From: a virus
IMG/VR virus record: IMGVR_UViG_3300035696_000013
Location: 1-64,000 of that record
DNA length: 64,000 nt
Direction: 5' to 3' (one strand)
Below the pieces are notes generated by a model that worked only from the letters and a program-made list of their open reading frames with translations, was not told the DNA's origin and did no database searches. The position numbers were made by a program, and so were the translations under genes. Below are positions 4,476-56,896 of this stretch, piece by piece. Within the stretch, counting starts at the first letter, position 1. Every line of letters begins with the position of its first letter.

Positions 4476-4479
4476 CTAC

Positions 4480-7206: not shown

Positions 7207-7207
7207 T

Positions 7208-9874
7208 TTATTTCACAATTGCGCCTGAGTTGTGAGTGTAGATGTATTTTCCTGGCTCTACACCTGCAGCAAAGTTACGTCCTCCACAATTCAGATGCGC
7301 AACCCGGCGCACGCCTAAACATTGAACTTCTACCAGCGGAGACCATTCAGGTTCATTACCCAAATCAGTTATAACATGCATTCCCGGTTCAAGGATATAA
7401 GCCAAGGCTGGAATTCGAGTTGGATCTTCGTTCCGTAGCCACATAGCAAGATTCTCTTGAGTGGGCACAGGGGTGCTTCCCGATACAACAACTTGTGCCC
7501 CGTTTTCTGCTCTAAGATGGTAACAAATCTCATCACTGTATTCCACCTTAACAATCTCCGTCAATTCTGTAGAAGGAAGAGCCGTAAGATATTGATTTAC
7601 TTCTCCTTCTAGAACTTGAACCAACATGTCAGGAATAGCATTAGCTACTTGATGATATTCACTGATATACATCTCCACAGCTGGGCATCCGCCACCACCA
7701 CCTGAAGTCGTATAAGTGTAAACAGTGCTGCCCCAATACACAGGCGACATAGAAAGACTATTCTGATCCACGCAAGAGAATCCGAGATTGTAGCTAGGCG
7801 GAAGGCTAGATTCAACAACGCTTATTTGATATGTCTTAAAGAAAACTGTTTGACCATTCACGATTCCTGTAGAAGAGCTAGTCGGCACACTTGAAGTTCC
7901 CAGTGTACTTTGACTAGATGAATTAGCTACACGCAACAAGAAGGATACTGTGTTGCTGACGTTTGTAGGATTGTAAACTGTAGCACTTATATTAATATTC
8001 ACAGTACCCGAAGTACCGCTAACCGAAGGACTAAAGCTGTAAAAAACCGGAGGTGCTAAAGCTTGACCTTGCAAAGTGATAGTCGCGATAGTTAGGTTGT
8101 TTACATAGACCACATTTCCTACTGTAAATGTTGTTCCATTCAAATAAGTCAAGTTACCCTGAATAGTAGCATTCAAAGAAGCACTAACGTTGACCGAAGA
8201 AACAGGAACTGAAGCTGTGACATTCCAGCCCGTTAACCATCCTTGAGCATCAAGAATTGGACTTGGAGTTCCAACTGTAGTTACTCCACCACTCCAAGAA
8301 GTTGTAATAGCAATTGTATTGCCTGTATTGAAAGCTCCTTGCTGTTGTGGAGAAATTGGTTTTGTGAGATTGATTGTGAAAATATGCTGCTGTCCATCTG
8401 CTGGAACAGTTGTCGGAGTAACAGAAGCAACAAACGGATTAGGATTGACCATATAGTCAATTTCAATGGTGGACTGGATACCTCCTCCGCTTACCGAAGC
8501 AGCAAACACATCATACGCTTTGTTAGTCGAATCAAACCAGGCAATATCGTTGTTTGTAATTGTCAGTTGTGTGGTATCGGAGTGAGAAATGAAACCCCCA
8601 CCATTATAGCTCAGATCAAAATTCGTACCATCATAAGTGATGGATAACAGTCCTTGCCAAGAAGTGTTGTTTCCCGTAAGAGCAAATGTAGCTCCCGCTG
8701 CTGTAGGTTTGTCTACAGGATTTCCATTGTAAAGAGGGAAGTTAAATACGTTACTCGAAGGACTGTTGTAGACAAAAATCTTACCTATGGTTCCTTCGAG
8801 AAGTGGAATGTAAGACTTGGTTGCATAATGAATGCCGTTAACATTGACATTCAACGTAACTGTATCTCCTACAATGTGGAAATTGCCATTTGCTAGTGAA
8901 AGTTGCAAATTACCCGAAGGAGTCGTCGCCGATGGAGCTGCTTGAGCAGCGACAGGAAGAATTACTCCACCCAATGCAGGGCCAAATTGCCCAGTTGGAA
9001 TCTGAGCAGATCCTGGTGTGTAAGTCATCTGATGAAAAGTAGTAGCATCAGGGTTATTGATCCACCAAATCATGAAAGGATAGATACCAACAGTTGGGAA
9101 GTTGATATAGATGTAATCAGTAGAACCAATGTTGCTTAAACCCCCTGTATTACGAGTACCAATCAATGGCCACGCTGGAAGTGTACCAATAACCAAATTT
9201 GCACTCGCCGGAGCATCTAGATTGCCGCCGTTGATTACCATGGTTCCTTGTGAACGCGCAGGGGTTTGACCATCAATGACATTCGGACCCATGTAAAGTG
9301 CCCATGAATCGTCCACCAACCAATAGAAAGTATGAACACCCGGAGTAGAAACTACGATGCTACCCTGGAATGTACAAATGAATGAATTCTGAAAAGGTAA
9401 CGGAGAGTCTGATGCCCAAGTTCCTGTGGCTGTGACTAAGTTAACATGCGGAGGAACAACTTCGTATTCTCCCGAATGGCCATCGGGAGATACTAATCCC
9501 GAGATTGGTGTATTGTTAAATGGCTGATTCACGATTACTGTATTAAAAGGACCAATTAAACTTGAAATAGGAGCACCAATACCATCCCAGTTTGAATGGC
9601 CACCAGGATTGGTGTAGCCTTGAATCATCAAGTTATTGAGTAAAGAAACAGCACCATTCGTTGCTTGCCACGCCAGGTTAGCTGCATTCGAAGTATAGGG
9701 ACTTCCAGCAATAGTTGCGGTAGCTTGAGCCGTATCCAATCCACCATGTGCACCTGTAAACGAAACGGTACCCGATCCCGAACCAGCAACCGGATCCACA
9801 TTAATCTGGATCTGTTTGGATTGAGGATTTGCGCTTCCTGCGCCGATCGTTATGGTAATGGTCTCAACTGGCAT
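7208..9874 (-). CDS. Virion protein with PA14-like domain and C-terminal Hint (intein-like) domain
   Basis: PA14-like 'FQGSIVVSTPGVHTFYWLVDDSWALY'. The C-terminus has a Gly linker then Cys (GGGGG-C) and ends in THN-SGAIVK. Confidence 0.65.
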   Translation of the reverse strand: MPVETITITIGAGSANPQSKQIQINVDPVAGSGSGTVSFTGAHGGLDTAQATATIAGSPYTSNAANLAWQATNGAVSLLNNLMIQGYTNPGGHSNWDGIGAPISSLIGPFNTVIVNQPFNNTPISGLVSPDGHSGEYEVVPPHVNLVTATGTWASDSPLPFQNSFICTFQGSIVVSTPGVHTFYWLVDDSWALYMGPNVIDGQTPARSQGTMVINGGNLDAPASANLVIGTLPAWPLIGTRNTGGLSNIGSTDYIYINFPTVGIYPFMIWWINNPDATTFHQMTYTPGSAQIPTGQFGPALGGVILPVAAQAAPSATTPSGNLQLSLANGNFHIVGDTVTLNVNVNGIHYATKSYIPLLEGTIGKIFVYNSPSSNVFNFPLYNGNPVDKPTAAGATFALTGNNTSWQGLLSITYDGTNFDLSYNGGGFISHSDTTQLTITNNDIAWFDSTNKAYDVFAASVSGGGIQSTIEIDYMVNPNPFVASVTPTTVPADGQQHIFTINLTKPISPQQQGAFNTGNTIAITTSWSGGVTTVGTPSPILDAQGWLTGWNVTASVPVSSVNVSASLNATIQGNLTYLNGTTFTVGNVVYVNNLTIATITLQGQALAPPVFYSFSPSVSGTSGTVNINISATVYNPTNVSNTVSFLLRVANSSSQSTLGTSSVPTSSSTGIVNGQTVFFKTYQISVVESSLPPSYNLGFSCVDQNSLSMSPVYWGSTVYTYTTSGGGGGCPAVEMYISEYHQVANAIPDMLVQVLEGEVNQYLTALPSTELTEIVKVEYSDEICYHLRAENGAQVVVSGSTPVPTQENLAMWLRNEDPTRIPALAYILEPGMHVITDLGNEPEWSPLVEVQCLGVRRVAHLNCGGRNFAAGVEPGKYIYTHNSGAIVK

Positions 9875-41496: not shown

Positions 41497-42714
41497 CTAA
41501 TACTCGCGAGGACCGTAGTATTTCTCTTGAAAGGCATTCTGAAAAACTGGATCGAATTCTCTCATCATAACAACTTGTCCTGTCTCTCGATAGTGATTTT
41601 GCTTTTCAGGCTTTAAGCCGGGATCGTTAGGGTTATCTTCTAAGCGTAATTGAACAGGTAACACTGCCCGTCGCATCTTCCAAAAGACCGAGAAATCTTC
41701 TTCTGGCCATCGCTGTTCTGCTTTCTTTATGCGTTGATAGAACATGTCGGCATAGACACCAGGATAACGACGATTAGGTCTGTGCCAGCTTTTGTAAGTG
41801 CAGAGTTCCGATTCTAATGTGAAATAAGTCACATCCCAAATGAAGTCTCGACTCTTGAAGCGTTCTTTAGCTTCAGAGAGCAAATTAGCTCCTTCCCTCT
41901 GCAGCCACAGCATCATCTCAGGAGTATATTTGCCTTCAAATCCAGTGTTATTTTCTGGTCCAGTCCAATCTAAATCATCTCGACCTAGAACTTTAGCCAA
42001 TCCATTTCGCAGTGATTTACTTCCCGAAATGTCTTCTAGAAACAAAGAGTTAGGTTCAATGTTGAGCTTGGCAATTCGGAGATACTCCAAGTAACTGAAG
42101 GTAGACATTCGTCCAAAAGAGTAGAAATCCTCTCGTACCTTATCCCACATTTTTTGAAAATTGACTAACGGATCTTCTTCTGTTGCAATTGTGTTAAAGA
42201 ATTCTGTCTGATCATTACCACACAACTCTTTATATTGCAAAACTGATTTTATGAAATCTCGTTTCTGATGTCTACGATCAGTGTCAAATTCCAAGCGTGG
42301 CCATTCTTTATTGTACCAAGCATACAATGCCGGAAGATCAAGCTCAGCGAAATCAGGAAAATGTTTGAAGATAATCCAAGAGGTTAACGGATGTTGTGTA
42401 TTGCCATTGATGAAAATAAACCACAATAGTTGTTCTCTCGACCATCCAAATTCTTTTCGTAAAAAGGGAAAGGTCATATAAGGTAAACTAGCTCCAGCAT
42501 GAATTCTATAACGGAGACAGAATTCGTAGAAACGTAGAAATACCTCACGACGGAATTCAGGCAGACGAAAATCCATTCCCTCTTCGAGATCTTGGATTTC
42601 ATTCAAACCCAGCAATTGACAATAACGACCCGGTGTTGTATGGTCACAGGTAGTTAAAACTTTGTCTAGGCCGATGACTTGTTGCCCGAAAGGGCTGTAA
42701 AAGAGTTTATTCAT
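41497..42714 (-). CDS. Amino acid:DNA transferase (aGPT-Pplase2/AADT family)
   Basis: 'FDTDRRHQK', 'FYSFGRMSTFSYLEYL', 'FTLESELCTYKS...RRYPGVYADM' are characteristic of this HhH-derived family; context with kinase and PLP enzyme. Confidence 0.75.
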   Translation of the reverse strand: MNKLFYSPFGQQVIGLDKVLTTCDHTTPGRYCQLLGLNEIQDLEEGMDFRLPEFRREVFLRFYEFCLRYRIHAGASLPYMTFPFLRKEFGWSREQLLWFIFINGNTQHPLTSWIIFKHFPDFAELDLPALYAWYNKEWPRLEFDTDRRHQKRDFIKSVLQYKELCGNDQTEFFNTIATEEDPLVNFQKMWDKVREDFYSFGRMSTFSYLEYLRIAKLNIEPNSLFLEDISGSKSLRNGLAKVLGRDDLDWTGPENNTGFEGKYTPEMMLWLQREGANLLSEAKERFKSRDFIWDVTYFTLESELCTYKSWHRPNRRYPGVYADMFYQRIKKAEQRWPEEDFSVFWKMRRAVLPVQLRLEDNPNDPGLKPEKQNHYRETGQVVMMREFDPVFQNAFQEKYYGPREY

Positions 42715-42880
42715 GCTCTTCTTCGTTCTCTACATCTTCATCAGAAGACATGACAGTCCCTTTCCAATCTGGGCAAGAACTGCTGGCAATTGCTATTGCT
42801 TTCTTAACAGCTTCTTCGTCATTGTCAGCATCTACATTAACAAAATCTTCAGCTTCCACTAAAACAATGTAATTTTTCAT
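42707..42880 (-). CDS. Small acidic hypothetical protein (57 aa)
   Basis: Hand-translated MKNYIVLVEAEDFVNVDADNDEEAVKKAIAIA...; fills the gap and overlaps the start of the next gene. Confidence 0.55.
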   Translation of the reverse strand: MKNYIVLVEAEDFVNVDADNDEEAVKKAIAIASSSCPDWKGTVMSSDEDVENEEEHE

Positions 42881-42881
42881 G

Positions 42882-43046
42882 TTATATATTCTGACTTAAG
42901 ACCAGTCCTCTTTCAATCATTCTATCGACAACTTGTTCAACAATTTGATCCAGAAGCTCGTCAGGAAGAGAGATAATGCGCCCTTTTTCGTCTACTTTTA
43001 TACAATTATCCTGACTGTCTGTAATTCCGATTTCATTTTGATTCAT
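42882..43046 (-). CDS. Small hypothetical protein (54 aa)
   Basis: Hand-translated MNQNEIGITDSQDNCIKVDEKGRIISLPDELLDQIVEQVVDRMIERGLVLSQNI; tightly packed between neighbours. Confidence 0.5.
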   Translation of the reverse strand: MNQNEIGITDSQDNCIKVDEKGRIISLPDELLDQIVEQVVDRMIERGLVLSQNI

Positions 43047-44151
43047 GCAATTCTCCAAACCTTTGTTTCAATACTGGAACCATAGCTTCAGCAGAAGGTT
43101 TGCTGCCTACGATCCAAAACAAAGATCGCTCGTTTAGGTAGGGACGAAAAATGTCCAAATTATCCTTCATATAATGCATCATCTTACCCTCATAACGAGG
43201 GTGAAACTCTATATCTTTATAGGAGTAAGGCATGAGATCGTTGTATTCGCAATAGCCTGTGCCATTCAGATTATAGTGCTCAAGAATGTAAGGAGCTATC
43301 TTTGAAGATTCTGGTTCAAGATCCTGATTGTGCTTAAATCTCCATCTAAAACAATCGGTCAAGCGAGCGTTCCAAGGCGTTCTCTCTTCTATTGATACTT
43401 GCTCTATCACCTGCAATCGACGATAAATATAAGCAGGATCTGTACTGCCAAAAGAACCGATTCCCAAAAGAATCACTCTCTTAAGGTTTTTGGGTCTAAA
43501 ACGTGTAATCCCATACAAAACGGAGGTCACACTGTTGCAACTACCCGCTGGAACGATAATTGTTTCAATCTCAGCAGGAAGATTTCGAACTTGTTCGCTG
43601 CCTACTTTATGGAAAGCTTCTACTCGTTCGGGAGAGTTCTTTTCTTGATCAACAGTGATATTGGTCTCTAAGTGAAAATAGCCAGGAAATTCTGTTTCTG
43701 TCAATTCCTTAGCCTTACTATTCAAAGTAGCAGCATATCCAGGGTTAAAACTTCTAAACTGAGCACCCAACCATTTTGCTGCTGCAAGTGTCTCGTGCTC
43801 TTCGGGACGTTTAGTACCAATACAATCTACAACAGGAAGACCAAAATGCACCCCAATACAAGCAGTCATAGGATGTTGGGGACTCCCGGTAACGGCTCCA
43901 TGAGAAATTCCAACTGCACCTTGTTTGATAGCTTCGGAGACTAACCAGATACACTGTCGTAGCTTAGAACCATTAATGCCGCCATAACCCAGCGGAGCAA
44001 ATTTATCTTCTCGCTTGAACCACATGCCGCCAATCTTTTCGCATGGCGAGAGGTCTAAAATGTGATCTTCCCAATGTATCAAATCACGATCTATGCTCTG
44101 TATCTGGAAGATGCTATCGTTCATAATTTCCCTTGTAGTATGATACTGCAA
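43033..44151 (-). CDS. PLP-dependent (PALP fold) enzyme, probable DNA-base decarboxylase
   Basis: 'WFKREDKFAPLGYGGINGSKLRQC', 'SPQ', 'VPAGSCNS', 'HPRYEGK', 'LFWIVG'; adjacent to AADT. Confidence 0.75.
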   Translation of the reverse strand: MQYHTTREIMNDSIFQIQSIDRDLIHWEDHILDLSPCEKIGGMWFKREDKFAPLGYGGINGSKLRQCIWLVSEAIKQGAVGISHGAVTGSPQHPMTACIGVHFGLPVVDCIGTKRPEEHETLAAAKWLGAQFRSFNPGYAATLNSKAKELTETEFPGYFHLETNITVDQEKNSPERVEAFHKVGSEQVRNLPAEIETIIVPAGSCNSVTSVLYGITRFRPKNLKRVILLGIGSFGSTDPAYIYRRLQVIEQVSIEERTPWNARLTDCFRWRFKHNQDLEPESSKIAPYILEHYNLNGTGYCEYNDLMPYSYKDIEFHPRYEGKMMHYMKDNLDIFRPYLNERSLFWIVGSKPSAEAMVPVLKQRFGELHESK

Positions 44152-47003: not shown

Positions 47004-48959
47004 ATGATGTCAAGTCGCATGTCCCCCTTTCAACAGTATATTCACAAATCGAGATATGCACGCTGGCTTCCGGATCAAAATCGAAGGGAAAATTGGGAAG
47101 AAACAGTACATCGGTACATAGAATTCTTTACTCCCCGCATTCCTGAAGTGGATCGCGAGAAGATTTCCACAGACCTAGAAAAGGCTATCCTCTCCTTGGA
47201 AGTTATGCCTTCCATGAGAGCTTTGATGACAGCTGGCCCTGCTCTAAAGAAGGACAATGCAGCCGGGTACAACTGCTCTTTCCTAATTGTGGACGATCCT
47301 CGCGCTTTCGACGAAGCAATGTATCTTAGCATGTGTAGCGCAGGAGTAGGGTTTTCGGTTGAACGACAGTTTGTGGCGATGTTGCCGACGATTGCAGAGA
47401 ACTTTTATCCGACTGATACGACCATCAAAGTTATGGACAGCAAGATTGGATGGGCAACGGGATTCCGCCAACTCATTCAGCTTTTGTACGGCGGTTTGAT
47501 ACCTAAATGGGATCTTAGCGCCGTTCGTCCTGCTGGTGCTCCGCTCAGAACCTTTGGTGGTCGTGCTTCGGGTCCTGCTCCGTTGGATCGTCTCTTCAAA
47601 TTCACAGTAAACCTTTTCCGTCGCGCTGCTGGTCGTAAATTCAATTCCATTGAGTGTCATGATTTGATGTGTAAGGTTGCCGATGTAGTTGTCTCGGGTG
47701 GCGTAAGACGATCAGCAATGATTTCGCTTTCTAACCTATCTGATGATCGCATGCGGAATGCCAAGAATGGAAAGTGGTGGGAAGACAACGGCCATCGCGC
47801 ACTGAGCAATAATTCTGTGGCTTACACAGAAAAACCTGAAATGGAAATTTTCCTTCGCGAATGGCTCACTCTGGTAGAAAGTAAATCGGGTGAGCGCGGT
47901 ATTTTCAATCGCGAAGCTGCTCAATTACAAGCAAAGAAAAATGGCCGTCGTAAATACAAAGGAATCAACTTTGGAACCAATCCTTGTTCTGAAATTATTC
48001 TTCGTTCTAAAGGATTGTGCAATTTAACCGAGGTAGTTGTCCGTCCTGAAGATTCAGTAAACACTTTGAAACGCAAGATTCGTCTAGCAGTCATTATGGG
48101 CTGCTTGCAATCTACCCTGACTGACTTTCGCTATTTAAGAAAAGAATGGCAAAAGAATGCAGAGGAAGAACGATTGCTAGGAGTTTCTCTAACCGGAATA
48201 GCCGACAACGTTTTGTTATCAACGAATGGCCCTGAATTGGAGAAACTCCTAGACGAGCTACATGACTATGCTGTGAATGTCTGTAAGGATTGGTCCAAGC
48301 GGCTGAATATTAAACTTGCTACCGCCATTACTTGCGTAAAGCCATCCGGGACTGTCTCGCAGCTTGTGAACAGCGCGTCCGGAATTCATGGACGATGGTC
48401 CGATTATTATCTTCGTGCCGTTCGAGGGGATAAGAAGGACCCTCTAGGCCAATTCTTAAAGGCTATGGGCATTCCTAATGAACCGGACATCACTAAACCA
48501 AACGATGTAGATATTTTCTATTTTCCAATGGAGTCTCCCAAGAGCAGTGTAAAGCGAAATGATACCTCAGCCATTGAGCAGCTTGAATTGTATCTGACCT
48601 ACTATCGCCATTGGTGCGAACACAATGTCAGCATCACAATTTATGTTAAAGAAAACGAATGGTTGAAGGTCGCTGCTTGGGTATATGAGCATTTTAATGA
48701 AGTCGGAGGAATCAGCTTCCTGCCCTATTCGGATCATGTCTATCAACAAGCTCCTTATACCGAAATCACAGAAGAAGAGTATCAGACTAGGAAAGCTGCA
48801 TTTCCGGAAATAGATTGGTCCAGACTTCCTGAGTTTGAAAAGGAAGACAATACCGTAGGCACCAAGGAGCTAGCTTGCTCTGCTGGCGTTTGCGAGTTAG
48901 TTGATATCACAGGCGTTCGCGATACAACTAATACTGACAACATTTCTAATTTGCAGTAG
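47004..48959 (+). CDS. nrdJ: Class II (adenosylcobalamin) ribonucleotide reductase
   Basis: 'PSMRAL', 'GYNCSF', 'GGVRRSA', 'GTNPCSEI', 'CNLTEV', 'TCVKPSGT' and C-terminal 'ACSAGVCE'. Confidence 0.93.
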   Translation: MMSSRMSPFQQYIHKSRYARWLPDQNRRENWEETVHRYIEFFTPRIPEVDREKISTDLEKAILSLEVMPSMRALMTAGPALKKDNAAGYNCSFLIVDDPRAFDEAMYLSMCSAGVGFSVERQFVAMLPTIAENFYPTDTTIKVMDSKIGWATGFRQLIQLLYGGLIPKWDLSAVRPAGAPLRTFGGRASGPAPLDRLFKFTVNLFRRAAGRKFNSIECHDLMCKVADVVVSGGVRRSAMISLSNLSDDRMRNAKNGKWWEDNGHRALSNNSVAYTEKPEMEIFLREWLTLVESKSGERGIFNREAAQLQAKKNGRRKYKGINFGTNPCSEIILRSKGLCNLTEVVVRPEDSVNTLKRKIRLAVIMGCLQSTLTDFRYLRKEWQKNAEEERLLGVSLTGIADNVLLSTNGPELEKLLDELHDYAVNVCKDWSKRLNIKLATAITCVKPSGTVSQLVNSASGIHGRWSDYYLRAVRGDKKDPLGQFLKAMGIPNEPDITKPNDVDIFYFPMESPKSSVKRNDTSAIEQLELYLTYYRHWCEHNVSITIYVKENEWLKVAAWVYEHFNEVGGISFLPYSDHVYQQAPYTEITEEEYQTRKAAFPEIDWSRLPEFEKEDNTVGTKELACSAGVCELVDITGVRDTTNTDNISNLQ

Positions 48960-50188: not shown

Positions 50189-51133
50189 ATGAGCATCCCT
50201 GCCACAGACAAGATTGTCGCAACCGCCGCCACCAAGCACATCACTCACTCTTTCGATGTTTCTCGATTCAAAGGGGCTTTGCGTTCTCTTGAAATTGGGC
50301 AGCAAATGGGTAAGATCTACAACATGGAATTTGAAAATGCAAAGTACTGGATTGCCCAAGGAACCGAGCATGCTCAACATATAGCAGCCGAAAAAGCACG
50401 TACCGATAAAGTCTACTCCGACGCAGATCCACGTGGAGATATTGGCTACGCCTTTTGTATGAATCAGGCTGCTTCTCTGGCTCGTCGTCTTAGGAAGCTG
50501 GATTCGAAACTTATCACGCCGGGGATACAATCGTACCTGGAAACCTTGGATCAGATTGCTGCAGTTTACATCTGGTTGAAATCGTTTAAGCCCATTATCG
50601 TTAAGGGTAGAAAGCCTAATCCGAATGCTCCTCCGCCGGATTTGACTAATATGGCAACTTGTGCCATTTGTTTCAGACAGCAAAAATTAGTCAAAGAAAA
50701 CAATGAATTGGTTATGGTGCATCATGGCTTTCACATTAGCGATGGAGCAGGACGATACTACGGGTACCGTGCTGGGTCCTGCCAAGGTGTTGGTTTTCAG
50801 CCTTATGAATTGAGCAGCGAAGCAAACGAGGCATACAAAAAGCTTCTCGGAGCACAACTGCTTTGTCAACAGGAATTTCTTCAGAAATTAAACAAGGGAG
50901 AGATTACAACCCTTCAATATCGCGTTCGTTCTACTGGGGATATTACTGAGTGGAAAACCACTTCTCGAGGAGATTCTGACTGGGATAAAATTTTCAAGAA
51001 AGAATTGAATGAGGCAGAATCCAATATCAAGCAGATCAAAAGCGACATCTCTTGGCAAGACGATCTTATTGCTCGTTGGACTCCTCAATCGGTAGTTTTC
51101 GACGGAACAACGTATCAAGCTTCCAGAGGTTAA
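50189..51133 (+). CDS. Hypothetical protein with CxxC...H...C motif
   Basis: 314 aa with GGAG SD upstream; 'TCAICFR...VHHGF...GSCQG'. Confidence 0.65.
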   Translation: MSIPATDKIVATAATKHITHSFDVSRFKGALRSLEIGQQMGKIYNMEFENAKYWIAQGTEHAQHIAAEKARTDKVYSDADPRGDIGYAFCMNQAASLARRLRKLDSKLITPGIQSYLETLDQIAAVYIWLKSFKPIIVKGRKPNPNAPPPDLTNMATCAICFRQQKLVKENNELVMVHHGFHISDGAGRYYGYRAGSCQGVGFQPYELSSEANEAYKKLLGAQLLCQQEFLQKLNKGEITTLQYRVRSTGDITEWKTTSRGDSDWDKIFKKELNEAESNIKQIKSDISWQDDLIARWTPQSVVFDGTTYQASRG

Positions 51134-51374
51134 TTTTATGGAAGTTCTTTACACCAATCAAAGAGGTCTTGAATTCTTCCTCTCCTGCACAGGAACTGCT
51201 TTTGAAGGTCGCTATCCGGGTAAGATTAGTAATGTCGAAGAGGTTGCCATAGAAGTTATGAAACCTCATTGGATCTCGAATAAGCCTCCTGCTACTCCTA
51301 AGTCCTTGATTAACTAAGACTTAAAACTACCCGAATCTGCAAGTTTCTGCGTAGATTGTAATAGAGATACGACT

Positions 51375-51602
51375 ATGAAACGAGCACTTCAAAAAGCCAA
51401 ACGAGATGCAGTGAAGTGGGCCAAAGCGGAGCTAAAGCGGCTCCTTGCTGAAGGTCGAAATCCACAAGATGCAGCTGAAGAAATTCTGATTGCGGTTTCT
51501 CGTCGACTGTATGGAATTGGTTGTCAAGTGGCCGTTTCGAAGGAATTGAATTTGCACTTTCGGCAACAAGAGGAAGAAAATGGAAGAACCAAAACAGCCT
51601 GA
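51375..51602 (+). CDS. Hypothetical protein
   Basis: 75 aa ORF. Confidence 0.5.
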   Translation: MKRALQKAKRDAVKWAKAELKRLLAEGRNPQDAAEEILIAVSRRLYGIGCQVAVSKELNLHFRQQEEENGRTKTA

Positions 51603-51762
51603 ACTAGGAACTAAAGTCAGACATTCTTCCCATAAAGAGGAAGGAGTTGTAGAAGGCTACAACTCAAAAGGAACGCCGTTAGTGCGTTGGAGTTATGGAA
51701 ATCTGACTGCGACACCAGTTACTTCTCTAGAAACTGAACAGGAATTTTGCAGCGCAACTTAA
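51580..51762 (+). CDS. Small SH3-like hypothetical protein
   Basis: 60 aa 'LGTKVRH...EGVVEG...LVRW'; GAGGAAG SD upstream. Confidence 0.45.
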   Translation: MEEPKQPELGTKVRHSSHKEEGVVEGYNSKGTPLVRWSYGNLTATPVTSLETEQEFCSAT

Positions 51763-51916
51763 CTGGAAGAAGTAAAGAAATAACTACCTGATTTCTAATT
51801 GTTGATCGTAGTATCAATTGTGAAGCCGAGTATAGGAAGCGGCAAAGCCGCACAACGAAACTCGGAAGTCAAGGACTGACTGGCTGTACAGATGCATCGT
51901 CTACCTTGCAAAGTTT

Positions 51917-52019
51917 TGCACTGTGGTGCGATGGTTGCAACGCCATCTAACTGCGAGGAGCAGGGCCACAACTGGGATATCCCGGCAGGGAGAGTTAGGT
52001 TCAAATCCTAACAGTACAT
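51917..52019 (+). ncRNA. tRNA-like RNA with anticodon arm replaced by a multi-hairpin insert
   Basis: Acceptor TGCACTG/CAGTACA, D-like arm, T arm TTAGG-TTCAAAT-CCTAA; no anticodon loop and no encoded CCA. Confidence 0.5.
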
Positions 52020-52186
52020 TTGAGATGCCGTTCCGGACGGCGCTGGACCCATTTACGGCGAGGAGCCTAAACGGTGGGCAACCATCCGGAAAACTATTGG
52101 GAAGAAGTAAAAAAGTAGGCGGTGGGTGCTATCTGACAAGATCTTGCAAGGTTTTGTCAGGTAACGAGCCGCACCCACAAAGTTTT

Positions 52187-52274
52187 GTGTCTGTAGCTTA
52201 GAGGCAAAGCGGCAGCCATTAGCCCTTGGGCGCGTGGCAGCAGATCAGTGGTTCGAGTCCACTCGGATACACCA
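52187..52274 (+). ncRNA. Anticodon-less tRNA mimic with G3-U70 and CCA
   Basis: GTGTCTG/CGGATAC-ACCA, D arm GCTT-AGAGGC-AAAGC, T arm AGTGG-TTCGAGT-CCACT; extended anticodon arm capped by a CUUG loop. Confidence 0.65.
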
Positions 52275-52700
52275 GAATCAGGGTCCGTTACAAGGGTCCC
52301 TTCGTGCCCACTCTGTGATGGGGTGGGGACAGGGACCCTGCTGGGCGGATCCGGGGAAGGCGGACTAATCAACCGTCTGTCCCAAATTTTATGAGCGTGA
52401 ATTTGCCGCTTACACGATTTGATGAGGCCAAGCAGTTGGCTCTCTCTGGCAACTATACCCTAAATGCCATCGTGGATCCACGATGTAGGACGCCAGAGGA
52501 TGTGGATTCCGGGTCCACTGGAACTCATCAATCCTTTCGTTATAGAAGTATTAAGTAGAGACGTACAAGTTTGAATTGGTCAATGCCAATTCATGCGGAG
52601 TAAACGCAAGGTCCGGGTGCTGCTGAAAAGCTGCAGTCTGAGCGCAACCTAAATAGGCGACACGCGAAGTAAGATGCACCCGGCATCTAATTTTTGAGTT

Positions 52701-52831
52701 TTGTGGTGCAGTGGGGATGGCGACCCACACTTATGCTAATAGAGGAGCTATGATGCTTGGCCGTTTTCGGTCGGTGAATAAACCGTGGCTGTAACTCCTC
52801 CAGCACCCGCGTTCGAATCCGGGCACCACAA
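52701..52831 (+). ncRNA. tRNA-like RNA with large central insert
   Basis: TTGTGGTGC/GCACCACAA closing stem, GTGGG/CCCAC D-like stem, GAGGAG/CTCCTC central helix and GTTCGAATC T loop. Confidence 0.5.
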
Positions 52832-53110
52832 TCAAGTTCCTAATTGCTGTGGCATTAGCGGCCAAGGCTCGATGGAATACCCAAGCGATGACAACCTGCT
52901 CCTAGTACGGCTACTATATCGCTAGAAGGTCGGAAGAGGGTCAGTAATTAGGATTCAAGTTTAGCAGCTGGATATTATGAGCAGCACCGGGTGGATAAAA
53001 TCAGAAGGCTGAACGCCGAGACTGGACCATCTGAAGCCGAAAGCTAGGTTGCTAAATTGATTTTTTCGCTTGTTTACCCGAAATTGGGAAATACGGAGTA
53101 TAATAGCAAT

Positions 53111-53215
53111 ATGAAGAACGCAGCACAAGTAGAACGAGATTGTAACGGAGCCACTGAACCTGGCGTCGCAGACGCGGGGACGGTGTCCTCGGACGTAATT
53201 GTGGAGGGCGGTTAG
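53111..53215 (+). CDS. Putative attenuator leader peptide (34 aa, GNN-codon rich)
   Basis: MKNAAQVERDCNGATEPGVADAGTVSSDVIVEGG*. TATAAT at 53099-53104 lies 6 nt before the ATG; 21 of 34 codons are GNN; the ORF overlaps the antiterminator strand. Confidence 0.65.
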   Translation: MKNAAQVERDCNGATEPGVADAGTVSSDVIVEGG

Positions 53216-53251
53216 CAACCGATTCAAACCACAAGATCGACCGAGGACGCC
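53182..53251 (+). promoter_or_regulatory. Antiterminator hairpin
   Basis: GGTGTCCTCGG (53182-53192) pairs with CCGAGGACGCC (53241-53251), with inner pairs TTGTGG/CCACAA and CGGTT/AACCG; it overlaps the terminator 5' arm. Confidence 0.7.
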
Positions 53252-53278
53252 CATTAAACCGGGCGTCCTTTTTGTTTT
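53244..53278 (+). terminator. Rho-independent terminator of the attenuator
   Basis: AGGACGCCC/GGGCGTCCT 9-bp stem followed by TTTTGTTTT. Confidence 0.85.
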
Positions 53279-53294
53279 ATAGTATTGTTTTACT

Positions 53295-53699
53295 ATGGGT
53301 CATGTGGAAAAATTTAATGAAAAAGAAAAGTGGTGTCCAAAGTGTGAGAAATGGATATTACTCAATGATTTCTATACGGATACTGATAGAAAAAGTGGAC
53401 GACGAACATATTGCAAGCTTTGCGAACGCTTAAAGAAAGCAGAATATGGTACAAATTCTCGAGATAAACTTTTAAATCCTGAAGAAATCAAAGTTCTTTG
53501 GGAAAATCAAGATCGTAAATGTGCCATATGTCGTAAAGAGATTGATTATTTAAGTGGTCATTTAGATCACGATCATGCAACAGGTCAAGCACGTGGGCTG
53601 CTTTGTAAGTGGTGTAATCTTGGATTAGGATGGTTTAAAGACAATTCTGAACTCTTAAAAGCAGCCATAGATTACTTGAAAAGATTTTCGCGCTGTTAG
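53295..53699 (+). CDS. Endonuclease VII-type HNH (free-standing homing) endonuclease
   Basis: 'CPKC...CKLC', 'CAIC...HLDHDHATGQARGLLCKWCNLGLGWFKDN'. Confidence 0.85.
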   Translation: MGHVEKFNEKEKWCPKCEKWILLNDFYTDTDRKSGRRTYCKLCERLKKAEYGTNSRDKLLNPEEIKVLWENQDRKCAICRKEIDYLSGHLDHDHATGQARGLLCKWCNLGLGWFKDNSELLKAAIDYLKRFSRC

Positions 53700-53765
53700 C
53701 TTAGTGGCAAAAGCATCTGCTTTACACGCAGGGGAACGGAGGTTCGAGTCCTCCACGGCGCACCA
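53690..53765 (+). tRNA. tRNA-Val(TAC)
   Basis: Cloverleaf GCGCTGT/ACGGCGC, loop TT-TAC-AC, encoded CCA. Confidence 0.92.
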
Positions 53766-53770
53766 AGATT

Positions 53771-53871
53771 GTTAGCAGCTGTAGAACTTAGTTTAACTGG
53801 CTAGAACTCCGGCCTTGGCCGGAGGCGGGAGGTTCGAGTCCTTCCAGTTCATTACATGTACCGCTGCTGAC
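53771..53871 (+). ncRNA. tRNA-like RNA with CUUG-capped anticodon stem and extended closing stem
   Basis: GTTAGCAGC/GCTGCTGAC outer stem, GAACT/AGTTC, D arm, TCCGGC-CTTG-GCCGGA, T arm GGAGG-TTCGAGT-CCTTC. Confidence 0.55.
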
Positions 53872-53937
53872 AGACAGGAGAGGCGGGTCTGATTCCGAGT
53901 CATGTCCGGGATATGACCCGCGCTCCCAAAAAGATTT

Positions 53938-54012
53938 GCGGCTTTCGTATAGTGGCTCGTATGTAGCCTTGCCAAGGCTGAGGCGCGGGTTCGATTCCCG
54001 CAAGCCGCTCCA
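53938..54012 (+). tRNA. tRNA-Gly(GCC)
   Basis: GCGGCTT/AAGCCGC, loop TT-GCC-AA, U73, CCA. Confidence 0.92.
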
Positions 54013-54031
54013 AGAGAGATTTAGATTTTTA

Positions 54032-54106
54032 GGTGACGTAGCATAATGGGAGTGCGCTTCCCCGTCACGGAAGAGTGTGGGGGTTCGAGTCCCCTCGTCA
54101 TCGCCA
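54032..54106 (+). tRNA. tRNA-Asp(GTC), C33 variant
   Basis: GGTGACG/CGTCATC, loop CC-GTC-AC, G73, CCA. Confidence 0.88.
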
Positions 54107-54113
54107 AGTTTAG

Positions 54114-54192
54114 GGTCTCATAGAGGAGTCCGGCTGTCCTCGTTTCCCTGTCACGGAAAAGATCGCGGGTTCAAATCCCGCTGGGACCGCCA
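54114..54192 (+). tRNA. tRNA-Asp(GTC)
   Basis: GGTCTCA/TGGGACC, loop CT-GTC-AC, G73, CCA. Confidence 0.92.
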
Positions 54193-54232
54193 AATTTAGA
54201 CCGGGCATTTATACTAGACCGCCCAATAATGT

Positions 54233-54255
54233 GGCCGTCTTCGGACGGCCTTTTT
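54233..54255 (+). terminator. Rho-independent terminator inside the tRNA array
   Basis: GGCCGTC-TTCG-GACGGCC followed by TTTTT. Confidence 0.8.
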
Positions 54256-54270
54256 ATCTAGAAAGTTTTT

Positions 54271-54347
54271 GGACTGGTAGCCAAGACGGTAAGGTGATCG
54301 CCTGCAAAGCGATTAATGCGTGAGTTCGATTCTCACCCAGTCCTCCA
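54271..54347 (+). tRNA. tRNA-Cys(GCA)
   Basis: GGACTGG/CCAGTCC, loop CT-GCA-AA, U73, CCA. Confidence 0.9.
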
Positions 54348-54353
54348 GAGTTT

Positions 54354-54427
54354 GGGGTTATAGTTCAGTGGGAGAACAGATGCATGGCATGCATCAGACC
54401 GGGGTTCGAATCCCCGTAGCTCCACCA
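54354..54427 (+). tRNA. tRNA-Ala(GGC)
   Basis: GGGGTTA/TAGCTCC with G3-U70, loop AT-GGC-AT, CCA. Confidence 0.92.
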
Positions 54428-54434
54428 AGTTTGT

Positions 54435-54508
54435 GGGGTCATCGTTCAACGGGAGGATGATTGGTTTGCACCCAGTAGATAGGGGTTCGATTCCCCTTGG
54501 CTCCACCA
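54435..54508 (+). tRNA. tRNA-Ala(TGC)
   Basis: GGGGTCA/TGGCTCC with G3-U70, loop TT-TGC-AC, CCA. Confidence 0.92.
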
Positions 54509-54514
54509 AAAGTT

Positions 54515-54875
54515 TACACAAGGCCGGACGATCGCGTAGTCTGTACGATGCGAGGAAAGTCAGGACAACACAGAGCAACGTGCCGGAGAAAGACCGGGCA
54601 TCCAGCAATGGATGACAGCTAGCGCAACAGAAAATAAACCGCCATGGTAATCCGTAAGGATTGCTGATGGTAAGGGTGAAAAGGCGGTGTAAGAGACCAC
54701 CGGGTCGTCAGTAATGACGGTCGCATGGCAAGCCTCACGTGTTGCAACTCTAAATAGGCAGAGAGAACCTGCTCGGTTCGTTATAATCTGCGGGTTAGGG
54801 GCTAGAGCCATCCGGTAACGGCTGGCCAAGATGAATGATCGTCCTTGACAAAATCCTGCTTACAGGTCTTGTGTA
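54515..54875 (+). ncRNA. rnpB: Bacterial-type RNase P RNA
   Basis: P1 TACACAAGGCC/GGTCTTGTGTA; CR-I GAGGAAAGTCAGGAC; AGCGCAACAGAAA; GGGTGAAAAGGCGGTGTAAGAGACCACC; CR-V ACAAAATCCTGCTTA, with compensatory P4 pairing (CAGG/CCTG). Confidence 0.92.
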
Positions 54876-54882
54876 CTAGAAT

Positions 54883-55010
54883 TTGCCGTGGTGAGAGTTG
54901 ACGGTTACTTCTCTTATAAAGAAGAGATGCGTGGTTCGAATCCCGCTACCCTCCGGGGTATAGTTCAATGGCAGAACGCTAAAAACACTGTTAACGTTTG
55001 TTCCCGGCAA
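54883..55010 (+). ncRNA. yrlA: YrlA-type Y RNA (permuted tRNA mimic)
   Basis: Terminal stem TTGCCG/CGGCAA and GTTGACGG/CTGTTAAC; T arm GGTTCGAATCC, loop-closed acceptor TACCC-TCCG-GGGTA, then D arm TAGTTCAATGGCAGAAC, in YrlA order. Confidence 0.8.
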
Positions 55011-55014
55011 TAAT

Positions 55015-55088
55015 GCGGGGTTGGCATATTGGCAGTGCGCCAGCCTTCCAAGCTGGATAAGCGCGTTCGATTCGCGTACCCCGCTCCA
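55015..55088 (+). tRNA. tRNA-Gly(TCC) copy 1
   Basis: GCGGGGT/ACCCCGC, loop CT-TCC-AA, CCA. Confidence 0.9.
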
Positions 55089-55162
55089 AGTTTATGCTTT
55101 TGCTCGTGTAGTTTAAGGGAAGAACGCTAAAAACACTGTTAACGTTTGTTCCCGGCAATAAT

Positions 55163-55236
55163 GCGGGGTTGGCATATTGGCAGTGCGCCAGCCTTCCAAG
55201 CTGGATAAGCGCGTTCGATTCGCGTACCCCGCTCCA
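55163..55236 (+). tRNA. tRNA-Gly(TCC) copy 2
   Basis: Identical copy within the tandem duplication. Confidence 0.85.
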
Positions 55237-55248
55237 AGTTTATGCTTT

Positions 55249-55352
55249 TGCTCGTGTAGTTTAAGGGAAGAACGCCGGAAGACCGAGACACCTACAAGGT
55301 GGAGTAGGCATTCAAATGTCGGGATGTTGGCTTCGAGTTCCAACCACGAGCA
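55249..55352 (+). ncRNA. tRNA-like RNA with anticodon arm replaced by three small hairpins
   Basis: TGCTCGTG/CACGAGCA, D arm GTTT-AAGGGAA-GAAC, T arm GTTGG/CCAAC; insert CGG/CCG, CACCT/AGGTG, GCATT/AATGT. Confidence 0.55.
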
Positions 55353-55361
55353 TTTAAGTTT

Positions 55362-55434
55362 GCACTGGTAGTTCAGTGGCAAGAATATCCGCTTCACATG
55401 CGGAAGACCGCTGGTTCGAATCCAGCCCAGTGTA
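55362..55434 (+). tRNA. tRNA-Val(CAC), no encoded CCA
   Basis: GCACTGG/CCAGTGT, loop TT-CAC-AT; 1 nt from the next tRNA. Confidence 0.88.
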
Positions 55435-55435
55435 C

Positions 55436-55511
55436 GCACTGTTAGATTAGTGGCTAAATCATTCGCTCGACACGCGAAAGAACATAGGTTCAACTCCTAT
55501 ACAGTGCACCA
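55436..55511 (+). tRNA. tRNA-Val(GAC), C33 variant
   Basis: GCACTGT/ACAGTGC, loop TC-GAC-AC, CCA. Confidence 0.88.
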
Positions 55512-55518
55512 AGATTAA

Positions 55519-55594
55519 GGGTCTATAGCTCAATTGGGAGAGCGTTCCCTTCGCATGGGAGAGGTTGTGAGTTCAAATCTCATTAGATCCACCA
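55519..55594 (+). tRNA. tRNA-Ala(CGC)
   Basis: GGGTCTA/TAGATCC with G3-U70, loop TT-CGC-AT, CCA. Confidence 0.92.
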
Positions 55595-55601
55595 AGTTTA
55601 T

Positions 55602-55674
55602 GGGCGGGTTGCATCTGGTAGAAAGGACATGCCTTTCTTTGCGATGCGTAAAATCCTAGGTCTCCTGTCCACCA
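55602..55674 (+). ncRNA. Non-cloverleaf RNA with Ala-type acceptor stem and CCA
   Basis: GGGCGGG/CCTGTCC-ACCA (G3-U70, A73); the body is a GCATC/GATGC plus AGAAAGG/CCTTTCT rod with no canonical D or T arm. Confidence 0.5.
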
Positions 55675-55679
55675 AGTTT

Positions 55680-55832
55680 GGGCTTGTCGTGGTGAACTAG
55701 CATGCCGAAAGCCGATAGCTGAGGTCAGCACATTAGGCCAATGTTGCCTCTGCTCAGCATGAACAGCCGCAAGGCACGTTCTTCAGGAAGGCCGAGATGC
55801 ATAGTAGGGGTTCGATTCCCCTCAAGTCCACC
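55680..55832 (+). ncRNA. Miniature tmRNA-like RNA
   Basis: GGGCTTG/CAAGTCC-A (G3-U70), stemless D loop, ATGC/GCAT connector, T arm AGGGG-TTCGATT-CCCCT; only about 150 nt long. Confidence 0.55.
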
Positions 55833-55838
55833 TAGTTT

Positions 55839-55913
55839 GGCACGTTCGTCTACTGGCTAGGACGCTGGCCCTTCAAGCCGGAAAAGCGGGATCGATACCC
55901 GCACGTGCTACCA
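55839..55913 (+). tRNA. tRNA-Glu(TTC), C33 variant
   Basis: GGCACGT/ACGTGCT, loop CC-TTC-AA, atypical T loop ATCGATA, CCA. Confidence 0.85.
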
Positions 55914-55918
55914 AATTT

Positions 55919-55992
55919 GGCCCTGTCGTTTATTGGTAGGACATCACTCTCTCAAGGTGGAGGAGACGGTTCGATTCCGTTCAGGGCTACCA
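55919..55992 (+). tRNA. tRNA-Glu(CTC)
   Basis: GGCCCTG/CAGGGCT, loop CT-CTC-AA, CCA. Confidence 0.9.
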
Positions 55993-56022
55993 AATCTTAA
56001 ATCTTACAGTATTAAATTCATT

Positions 56023-56274
56023 ATGGCAAAGAAACTTACTGAGAATAAAGAACGACCTGAACTCACTGATGTTGGCGAAAGATGGAATCGACAGCTTTTT
56101 GAACGTAGCGAAGTTACTTCCCTGTTAACTTGGCTCGTAATTCATTTTCAGGAATGCAAGTGTAAGGGAATTGTTATTGCTCAATCTTCTGCTAGTGGTA
56201 TAGGTACGAATACAGTAATTCGTTGCACCACTTGTAACAAGAGTAAAGATATAACAGATTACACGCTTTGGTAA
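56023..56274 (+). CDS. Small Cys-containing hypothetical protein
   Basis: Start moved to ATG 56023 because the upstream frame overlaps a tRNA; 'SGIGTNTVIRCTTCNKSKDITDY..W'. Confidence 0.6.
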   Translation: MAKKLTENKERPELTDVGERWNRQLFERSEVTSLLTWLVIHFQECKCKGIVIAQSSASGIGTNTVIRCTTCNKSKDITDYTLW

Positions 56275-56275
56275 A

Positions 56276-56896
56276 ATGATAGATCCATACGACTTGAGCC
56301 ATCCTTGGGATCGCAATCGATTAGAAGAGTGGATATTGTTTGGTATTTGTGTTGCCAACAAACCTGCTGATCCAACCGCTGTAAAAGTTGACGCTGTTTT
56401 AAATACTCTTCGTGAAGAAATAGTCAATGTCTGTAGTTTCTTTCCGGAATGCGAAACTCCTCCCACTCCTTTTGAACTTGTTGGAATGGCTGCTGAATCA
56501 AACATGTTGAGAAAAATCCTTAAAAAGCATAAGGTCGGTCAATATACAAGAATAGAAAGAGCATTTCGAGAAGTTGTTGAAAAAATCAAAGATCCATTGA
56601 ATACAACTGTAGAAGAATTAGAAACTGTTCACGGAATAGGTCCTAAAACAGCACGGATGATAATGCTCTATTACAAACCTGAGACGGCTTGTGTTCCATT
56701 GGATACTCATGTTCTCAAGTGGCTCAGAGCACAGGGTTATGATGCTCCAAAAGGAACTCCTAGCGGAAAGAAATATCTTGAGTTAGAAAATATCTTCATT
56801 CTTGAAGCTTACAAGCGGGGCATGTCGGTAAAAGATCTGGATAGTCAAGTTTGGGCTTACTACGCTCTTCCTCAGAAACAATCTAAACCTAAATAG
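56276..56896 (+). CDS. HhH-GPD superfamily DNA glycosylase-like protein
   Basis: HhH 'LETVHGIGPKTARM' and 'VPLDTHVLKWL'; no FeS cluster motif. Confidence 0.75.
   Translation: MIDPYDLSHPWDRNRLEEWILFGICVANKPADPTAVKVDAVLNTLREEIVNVCSFFPECETPPTPFELVGMAAESNMLRKILKKHKVGQYTRIERAFREVVEKIKDPLNTTVEELETVHGIGPKTARMIMLYYKPETACVPLDTHVLKWLRAQGYDAPKGTPSGKKYLELENIFILEAYKRGMSVKDLDSQVWAYYALPQKQSKPK

Follow-up and report, generated by a model that had tools for sequence, protein, structure and literature searches.

RESULTS

A predicted attenuator before a phage tRNA array

The DNA studied here is the first 64 kb (64,000 nucleotides; the window) of a 132,623-bp single-contig phage record, IMGVR_UViG_3300035696_000013 (genome label G000), and the element in question is a short leader open reading frame (ORF) at 53111–53215 that stands, with its flanking signals, before an array of transfer RNA (tRNA) genes. 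On the basis of comparison with related phages and of RNA folding, we predict that this element is, with good probability, a ribosome-mediated leader-peptide transcription attenuator that gates the tRNA operon of the phage. The leader probably lets the phage make the tRNAs of the array only when ribosomes slow on the codons that those tRNAs read. An attenuator whose codons mirror the tRNA array under its control had been proposed in the initial annotation of this DNA, and the proposal is supported by conservation of the leader, by the recurrence of such leaders at other arrays and by the structure of the leader RNA.

The leader ORF and its promoter

The leader ORF has 34 sense codons on the plus strand and ends with a TAG stop codon at 53213–53215. 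Its promoter is placed at 53074–53104, with a −10 box, TATAAT, at 53099–53104 and a degenerate −35-like region ~17–20 nucleotides (nt) further upstream. Only 6 nt separate the TATAAT from the ATG at 53111, and the mRNA is therefore predicted to be leaderless. Codons that begin with G (GNN) make up 21 of the 34, with 14 of the 16 GNN types present (GCT and GTT are missing) and six GNN codons in a row at 53162–53179; codon 11 is TGT (53141–53143). The TATAAT box, its spacing and the codon counts had been pointed out in the initial annotation, and all hold. Together, the 21 GNN codons and the TGT mean that the downstream array has tRNAs for 22 of the 33 post-start codons (binomial P = 1.4e-4 against the coding background of the genome). 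The putative regulatory part, as judged from the codon pattern and the masked folds described below, is the cognate codon run at 53120–53179 (plus strand), upstream of the antiterminator strand.

The GNN bias of the leader is no trivial by-product of composition. None of the 629 ORFs of 30–45 codons in the 132,623-bp genome is at least 60% GNN, the maximum being 48%. When all six frames are scanned in 34-codon segments, 72 of 265,048 contain at least 21 GNN codons, and the 14 distinct GNN codons of the leader are the genome maximum; if TGY codons are counted with GNN, 36 of 265,050 segments, from seven loci, reach 22/33.

A generic sigma-70 consensus scan did not list the promoter site at 53099. 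The promoter block is kept across seven homologous upstream regions (alignment A3), including a GAATAC-CGAG-like block before the hexamer. The hexamer itself has TA at positions 1–2 in all seven homologues and T at position 6 in five, and TTGCAA or TTGTAA lies 17 nt upstream in three of the related loci introduced below (L057, L060 and L063). The arrangement of a −10 box, 6 nt and an ATG is shared with the Tyr/Leu leader of the same genome and with two leaders of the related phage G001, and the remaining leaders have a short 5′ untranslated region, some with GAGG-like boxes. Leaderless initiation as a phage-wide habit was considered and rejected, as only 1 of 106 long ORFs (the HNH gene described below) has a −10-like box 5–8 nt before its ATG. 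Recoding of TAG, by which the leader would be lengthened, is unlikely, as 22 of 88 long ORFs terminate in TAG and the contig yielded no tRNA(CTA).

Competing helices and footprint-masked folds

An intrinsic terminator begins 27 nt past the leader stop codon. Its stem (53243–53270) has 10 pairs, seven of them GC, and is followed by a T-run that extends to 53278 (−19.3 kcal/mol). The 5′ arm of this terminator is overlapped by the 3′ strand (53241–53251) of an 11-bp antiterminator with one G-U pair, the 5′ strand of which (53182–53192, plus strand) lies within leader codons 24–28. The initial annotation had described a strong terminator and an 11-bp antiterminator at the end of the leader as mutually exclusive, and folding bears this out: the antiterminator is the minimum free energy (MFE) pairing when the transcript is truncated before the 3′ arm of the terminator, and its duplex energy of −23.4 kcal/mol compares with −14.4 ± 2.3 for 500 codon shuffles, none of which was as good. 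The loop of the antiterminator contains nested helices (53194–53240) that enclose the stop codon and an 11-mer common to the Tyr/Leu leader. This 11-mer starts at the stop codon of the GNN leader (53213) and recurs in the genome only at 84162, 6 nt past the stop of the Tyr/Leu leader; each of the two copies is one strand of a helix nested in an antiterminator hairpin.

The response of these helices to a ribosome was modelled by partition-function folds in which a 28-nt ribosome footprint was forced to be single-stranded, a calculation that describes equilibrium and not kinetics. In the free full-length leader RNA the terminator has a probability of 0.64, a value explained by long-range pairing of ~53147–53156 with ~53180–53188 in the full-length MFE. 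With the aminoacyl (A) site at codons 11–20 (53141–53170) the terminator probability is ~0–0.2 and the antiterminator is favoured, and with the A site anywhere from codon 23 to the stop it is at least 0.9. The modelled leader at 53111–53215 thus switches as had been predicted, and for the window leader the masked folds clearly support the proposed sign of the switch.

Two details of the earlier proposal fared less well. A protector hairpin suggested at 53176–53190 occurs in no predicted MFE, and its 5′ strand is, by eye, not kept in the related phages G001 or G002. The run of six GNN codons is present as described, and a stall on the final codons of this run would leave the ribosome over the antiterminator strand, which it would mask.

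Conservation of the GNN leader in related phages

Relatives were collected with the helix-hairpin-helix (HhH) protein encoded right after the array (56276–56896) as bait, which matched two IMG/VR contigs (G001 and G002) and 42 metagenome loci; the upstream protein at 50189–51133, used as an IMG/VR bait, returned 0 relatives. Seven of the 42 loci carry tRNAs (L042, L046, L050, L057, L058, L060 and L063). Three of these were set aside as repeats: L042 and L046 were taken as copies of G001 and G002 on the strength of identical tRNA coordinates, and L058 is identical to L057 over 3900–7500. The gene order is not universal, for the bait lacks a nearby tRNA in five loci with 8.6–10 kb of upstream flank (L045, L053, L055, L062 and L072). 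In the other 30 the upstream sequence is too short for a judgement; most of these are short contigs, and in the longer ones among them (L044, L059, L065 and L068) the bait lies within ~2.5 kb of the upstream end.

The same Val/Gly/Ala/Asp/Glu/Cys array is present in six further contigs, namely G001 (locus L001), G002 (locus L002), L050, L057, L060 and L063, whose HhH proteins are 41–77% identical to that of the window. In all six the first tRNA-Val is immediately preceded by a small ORF, without an intervening protein gene, and the cognate codons of these ORFs number 18/31 in G001, 24/42 in G002, 27/39 in L050, 24/42 in L057, 28/42 in L060 and 26/42 in L063. The distance from the terminator to the first tRNA is ~25 nt or less in five of the six and ~95 nt in L050. 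The leader peptides can hardly be aligned, and what is kept instead is the in-frame nucleotide block of the antiterminator, the terminator and the promoter block. The expectation that the leader frame and its GNN bias would be conserved in related phages is therefore borne out by six further contigs that carry the same array.

Covariation of the helices had also been anticipated, and this is what is seen for the terminator, the pairs of which are 100% kept in seven homologues (alignment A2) with four compensatory pairs, a covariation score matched by 0 of 500 shuffles. The 9-bp core of the antiterminator is paired in all seven homologues. In L063 a base common to both helices has changed from A to G, and its partners in the antiterminator and in the terminator have both changed from U to C. 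G002 has an A to G change at another shared base, where wobble pairs keep both helices. As a separate observation, the HhH gene of G001 is split into two overlapping frames (L001 10001–10592), which reflects either a frameshift or an assembly error.

Leaders of other arrays match their own codons

The leader set was extended to 20 leaders from eight phage sequences (G000, G001, G002, L050, L057, L060, L063 and Tunturi_5), with coverage of all tRNA clusters of G001 (26 tRNAs) and G002 (69 tRNAs) and of the 28-kb tRNA region (L087) of Tunturi_5. Tunturiibacter phage Tunturi_5 (PP885688.1) is the nearest cultured phage, and its DnaB is 27% identical to that of the window. The genome from which the window is taken has two further leaders, a Tyr/Leu leader at 84084–84155 and a Pro/Met/Phe leader at 88439–88501, each codon-matched to its own array. 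Across the set the array classes are GNN/Cys, Tyr/Leu, Pro/Met/Phe, Ile/Thr/Gln, Ser with Leu-TAA, Trp/His/Arg/Asn/Gln/Lys and three mixed arrays in Tunturi_5.

All 20 leaders are enriched in the codons of their own array, from 6/23 to 33/48 (binomial P from 1e-5 to 0.03 against the coding background), and the cognate codons are arranged in contiguous runs. When leaders and arrays were permuted within a genome, the true pairing was the single best permutation in each of four genomes: one of 6 in G000, one of 24 in G001, one of 720 in G002 and one of 6 in Tunturi_5. These data answer a check put forward in the initial annotation: other tRNA clusters do have leaders that match their own anticodons. 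The Ser leader of G002 contains nine cognate codons in a row, made up of all six Ser codons and TTA, and its array consists of four tRNA-Ser and a tRNA-Leu(TAA). The Ile/Thr/Gln leaders are runs of Thr, Gln and Ile codons. An array of Tunturi_5 groups Leu, Cys, Tyr and Ser, and its leader has 11 consecutive early cognate codons and three more. The three Tunturi_5 leaders (L087 1657–1755, 9723–9836 and 22074–22223) each have a terminator before the tRNA array; in the deposited record two of them are unannotated and one is the hypothetical protein ORF308.

The suppressor/Lys cluster of G002 (L038, ~5668, minus strand) has a promoter-like box and no leader. Three tRNA genes with the anticodon CTA, amber-suppressor-like, lie at L038 4748–5066 (minus strand, G002, 463 kb) and may hint that this phage has reassigned TAG; its six leaders all end in TAA. 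Just upstream of the promoter of the Pro/Met/Phe leader in G000, the segment 88019–88290 has the leader-type promoter in another copy, followed by ~230 nt devoid of ORFs and by a terminator, and is possibly a small RNA. The other tRNA clusters of this genome also have ORFs of 100–220 codons between the tRNAs, for example at 88832–89482.

A common architecture

Past the stop codon, at a distance of 17–31 nt, 17 of the 20 leaders have a hairpin followed by a T-run, with energies of −11.5 to −20.0 kcal/mol. When the transcripts of these 17 are truncated, each folds so that the terminator 5′ arm is paired to a stretch in the 3′ part of the ORF, just past the cognate run, and in every one the stop codon lies inside helices nested in the antiterminator hairpin. 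The antiterminator is equalled or beaten by no more than 27 of 500 codon shuffles in 15 of the 17. As the pairing sequences differ between the classes, it is the topology that is conserved and not the sequence. Two of the G002 leaders share a spacer motif between the stop and the terminator.

The Pro/Met/Phe leaders have five Met codons, three different Pro codons and one or two Phe codons. Their leader regions are at G000 88439–88621, on the minus strand of L034 (reverse-complement coordinates 5520–5698) and at L039 6142–6244.

The putatively gated genes: tRNAs, RNase P RNA and an inserted endonuclease

The array (53690–55992, plus strand) contains three tRNA-Val, three tRNA-Gly, two tRNA-Asp, three tRNA-Ala, two tRNA-Glu and one tRNA-Cys gene together with odd tRNA-like genes. 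ARAGORN lists 15 tRNA genes here, of which 13 read GNN codons, one is Cys and one is an odd gene with a 2-nt anticodon; apart from this odd gene, the count agrees with the reading of the array in the initial annotation.

Within the array, at 54516–54878 (plus strand), lies a full-length bacterial class A RNase P RNA (266.9 bits, model positions 1–367), which from this position is presumably co-transcribed with the tRNAs. An RNase P RNA is present in all seven homologous arrays (167–267 bits, model positions 1–367), those of the relatives being at L001 6191–6568, L002 6389–6709, L050 5868–6214, L057 5273–5652, L060 4558–4937 and L063 5792–6166. None was found in the 28-kb tRNA region of Tunturi_5, and blastn against 50,697 deposited phage records gave no counterpart of the array RNase P RNA. 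A search of the published literature found no account of a phage-encoded RNase P RNA. When the segment 53000–56100 was compared by blastn with the same 50,697 records, it matched isolated tRNA genes only, with no record covering at least 80% of it. In a look-up of sequencing runs for 52900–54300 no RNA run was listed, and the two runs that were listed are DNA runs labelled peat metagenome, from which the sequence may derive.

A gene for a 134-residue Endonuclease VII/HNH-type protein (53295–53699, plus strand; Endonuclease_7 PF02945, E = 4.7e-21) sits exactly between the terminator and tRNA-Val, and its last 10 nt overlap the tRNA. There is no protein gene at this place in any of the six relatives; the gene is therefore a lineage-specific insertion in the window phage and has the look of a homing endonuclease that inserted itself where read-through transcripts would pass. 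A terminator-like hairpin (site 54233–54250) with a T-run is found further on, at 54233–54260 (plus strand), between tRNA-Asp and tRNA-Cys, and may free both the distal tRNAs and the RNase P RNA from control by the leader. Internal terminators are present in only two of the seven homologous arrays (G000 and L050), and the 54233 site is lineage-specific. Both interruptions between the leader and parts of the array, the HNH gene with its own promoter-like box and the second terminator at 54233, had been raised as caveats to the proposal, and both are present.

Several other features of the region were observed. A 148-nt unit is tandemly duplicated at 54958–55253 with 97% identity, which doubles tRNA-Gly(TCC) and splits or rejoins flanking tRNA-like halves. 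Weak or odd tRNA-like structured RNAs occur at 51815–53056, 53783–53852, 54893–54954 and 55600–55832, and include a 25.9-bit match to tRNA, another of 85 nt at 52187–52271 and the gene with the 2-nt anticodon; the first of these segments is a GC-rich, ORF-poor cluster of structured RNAs just upstream of the leader. Further away, 41497–44151 and 47004–48959 encode a DNA hypermodification enzyme of the amino acid:DNA transferase/thymine pyrophosphorylase type (PF18724, E = 3.3e-20), a pyridoxal phosphate (PLP) enzyme and a class II-like ribonucleotide reductase.

DISCUSSION

Proposed mechanism

In the mechanism that we propose, transcription would start at or just before the ATG of the leader, and the leader would be translated as it emerges from the polymerase. 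When cognate aminoacyl-tRNA is ample, the ribosome would run on to cover the antiterminator strand and melt the nested helices, so that the terminator forms and transcription stops at 53278. When the cognate tRNAs are scarce, damaged or uncharged, the ribosome would stall early, within the first ~20 codons or about two thirds of the leader, and the antiterminator could then form before the 3′ arm of the terminator exists; polymerase would go on to transcribe the HNH gene, the tRNA genes and the RNase P RNA. Since the tRNA product would relieve the stall, this is a negative feedback, and each array would be self-limiting and supplied on demand. Sensing of host defences that destroy tRNAs is a plausible purpose of such a device, and a plain homeostat would explain the data equally well.

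A wider picture can be drawn for the clade of soil and peat jumbo-type phages to which these sequences belong, in which every amino-acid-sorted array is gated by a leader that assays just the decoding capacity supplied by that array, the RNase P RNA is gated as well, and host tRNAs lost, for example, to anticodon nucleases or to host shut-off induced by the phage are sensed and replaced family by family in a modular, codon-resolved network of tRNA supply on demand. We offer this picture tentatively and regard it as rather doubtful in its full extent.

Strength of the proposal and alternative explanations

A number of findings weigh against the proposed attenuator and have to be set beside the evidence above. 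Some excess of GNN is expected in any G-rich coding or structured stretch, and the leaders of G000, G001 and G002 are homologous and so are not independent samples; the informative cases are the six classes of G002 and the regrouped arrays of Tunturi_5. The TGT codon does not serve as the specific Cys signal that the initial annotation took it to be, as Cys codons are not array-specific: they occur in six leaders whose arrays have no tRNA-Cys and are absent from one leader, the Trp/His/Arg leader of G002, whose array does have it. The covariation anticipated for the antiterminator is not significant by itself, with one compensatory pair in the seven sequences and 191 of 500 shuffles scoring equally. 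Two of the 17 antiterminators are no better than shuffles (G000 Tyr/Leu, 61/500; the third Tunturi_5 leader, 158/500). In the masked equilibrium folds the terminator is favoured at all ribosome positions in at least three of the 17 leaders (G001_YL, G002_ITQ and G002_WHRNQK), and in G001_GNN it is the antiterminator that dominates at almost all of them. No recognisable terminator accompanies the stop-codon hairpin of the three Pro/Met/Phe leaders. In the window leader itself, an A site at codon 21 or later favours termination, the last GNN codons being too near the antiterminator strand. Finally, the inserted endonuclease gene is preceded by TATTGT, 6 nt before its ATG, which could drive the array independently, and the strong terminator at 54233 could cut off the distal tRNAs.

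The last two points lead to the explanation that the attenuator is largely bypassed in the window genome, where control by the leader would reach little further than the HNH gene and five tRNAs at the start of the array, if it acted at all. The TATTGT box stands directly after the terminator with the geometry of the leader promoters, the internal terminator has seven pairs (six GC) and a T-run, and both the endonuclease insertion and the internal terminator are absent from most relatives. Set against this, the leader, antiterminator and terminator of the window are intact and as strong as in the relatives, the leader retains codons for Ala, Glu and Cys, the tRNAs for which are encoded past 54233, and no −35 element is evident by eye for the HNH box. 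We consider a bypass unlikely. The same parts could also work by another logic, with a late stall masking the antiterminator and so causing termination, or with the stop-codon hairpin controlling the processing or stability of the precursor. This would fit the end of the cognate run, which in most leaders is 3–10 nt before the antiterminator strand, the preference for the terminator in the window leader when the A site is at codon 21 or beyond, and the Pro/Met/Phe leaders, all three of which lack a terminator and yet keep the stop-codon hairpin, whose 3′ strand extends in G002 into the first tRNA-Pro. However, a ribosome should stall at the first hungry codon, and the cognate codons begin 30–45 nt upstream of the antiterminator strand. 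A canonical terminator is also present in 17 of the 20 leaders at a fixed 17–31 nt past the stop, and termination upon scarcity would amount to positive feedback, less tRNA being made when it is scarce, with no obvious benefit. On balance such a logic appears improbable.

The plainest explanation is that the features are ordinary ones, that is, that the terminator serves to end the upstream cluster of structured RNAs (51815–53056) and that the GNN-rich ORF is a chance occurrence or a small-protein gene. A G-rich structured region, such as this one with a GC skew of +0.155 at 53001–54000, will be GNN-rich in some frame, and the absence of the 53099 site from the sigma-70 scan is in keeping with this. 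Such an explanation cannot, however, account for own-codon leaders at six array classes in four genomes, with the true pairing the single best of 720 in G002, for a peptide that drifts while its frame, its codon class and both helices stay, or for the position of the stop codon within the antiterminator hairpin in all 17 leaders. This explanation is strongly disfavoured and, to our minds, very improbable. A leader-peptide attenuator that responds to slow decoding thus remains the reading that we favour.

Significance

Leader-peptide attenuation is a textbook mechanism that, to our knowledge, has been described only at genes for the synthesis or charging of amino acids. Placing tRNA genes under the same logic appears to give the shortest possible feedback loop, in which slow decoding leads directly to more of the decoder. 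If correct, the proposal would account for the way in which the tRNA arrays of phages are sorted, by amino acid or by codon row, and would mean that large phages regulate a private translation apparatus, RNase P RNA included, codon family by codon family. It would also provide a concrete route by which a phage could respond to host defences that cleave tRNAs, and a source of natural, compact sensors of individual tRNA pools that could be reused in synthetic biology. The presence of three leaders in the cultured Tunturiibacter phage Tunturi_5 makes the idea directly testable at the bench. The article on that phage reports 43 tRNA genes and tRNA-processing enzymes, and its main text makes no mention of leaders, attenuation or RNase P (PMC11924767).

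Comparison with known systems

Among the enterobacterial amino acid operons, trpL, hisL, leuL, pheL and the multivalent leaders thrL and that of ilvGMEDA are leader-peptide transcription attenuators. A general model of this type of control is set out in PMC1183508. The phage leaders resemble the trp/his-type attenuators in having a short ORF between the promoter and the regulated genes, cognate codons, an intrinsic terminator, a mutually exclusive antiterminator, the formation of which would by analogy be set by the position of the ribosome, and putative multivalent sensing of several amino acids. They differ in what they appear to gate: the genes after the phage leader are tRNAs, the RNase P RNA and the inserted endonuclease, with no biosynthetic enzyme or synthetase among them, so that the molecule sensed would be the direct gene product. 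One phage leader would also sense up to five to nine amino acid families, and its antiterminator has the 5′ strand inside the ORF and encloses the stop codon in its hairpin. A conserved 1:2 pause/protector hairpin did not emerge from the folds of the window leader, some of the phage leaders are predicted to be leaderless mRNAs, and there is no sequence homology between the two groups. With tRNA genes as the regulated genes, the phage element would work like the trp/his attenuators and yet be a member of no described family.

The pheST operon of Escherichia coli, which encodes phenylalanyl-tRNA synthetase, has an attenuator with a leader peptide and is similar in that cognate codons of this peptide govern part of the translation machinery and not an enzyme of biosynthesis. 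Unlike the phage leaders, the pheST attenuator controls a synthetase, responds to one amino acid and belongs to a cellular genome.

T-box riboswitches bind uncharged tRNA directly via a specifier codon and need no ribosome. The analogy to the phage leaders is that the state of a specific tRNA is sensed by a terminator/antiterminator switch upstream of translation-related genes. A search with Rfam gave no T-box or other cis-regulatory family in 51300–56100 at E ≤ 1 and no T-box in the window at the gathering score.

The tRNA sets of phages are said, for instance in work by Bailly-Bechet from 2007 (cited in PMC11924767), either to help with codon usage or to replace host tRNAs that anticodon nucleases have cleaved. 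Studies of these sets provide a rationale for extra tRNAs when host decoding fails, and they concern the content of the sets and not its regulation; in the literature searched, no description of an inducible, codon-sensing control of phage tRNAs was found.

The nearest published case found to tRNA genes that are switched on by translational trouble is the trn L-array of Anabaena sp. PCC 7120, a long and normally silent tRNA operon that is induced by impaired translation through promoter control, with direct repeats bound by the repressor TrcR (PMC8421152, PMC10272220). The terms "leader peptide", "attenuat" and "terminator" do not occur in the text of PMC8421152. By analogy with the phage arrays, the Anabaena array is, in these sources, accessory and horizontally mobile, and its transcription goes up when decoding is compromised; unlike that of the phage leaders, its control is described there as global and not codon-resolved. 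In the openly accessible full-text literature, no published account of leader-peptide attenuation of tRNA genes was found. Codon-matched attenuation as a control of tRNA genes appears, then, not yet to have been described, and from the sequences compared here it would join a known mechanism to a new regulated product and a different geometry.

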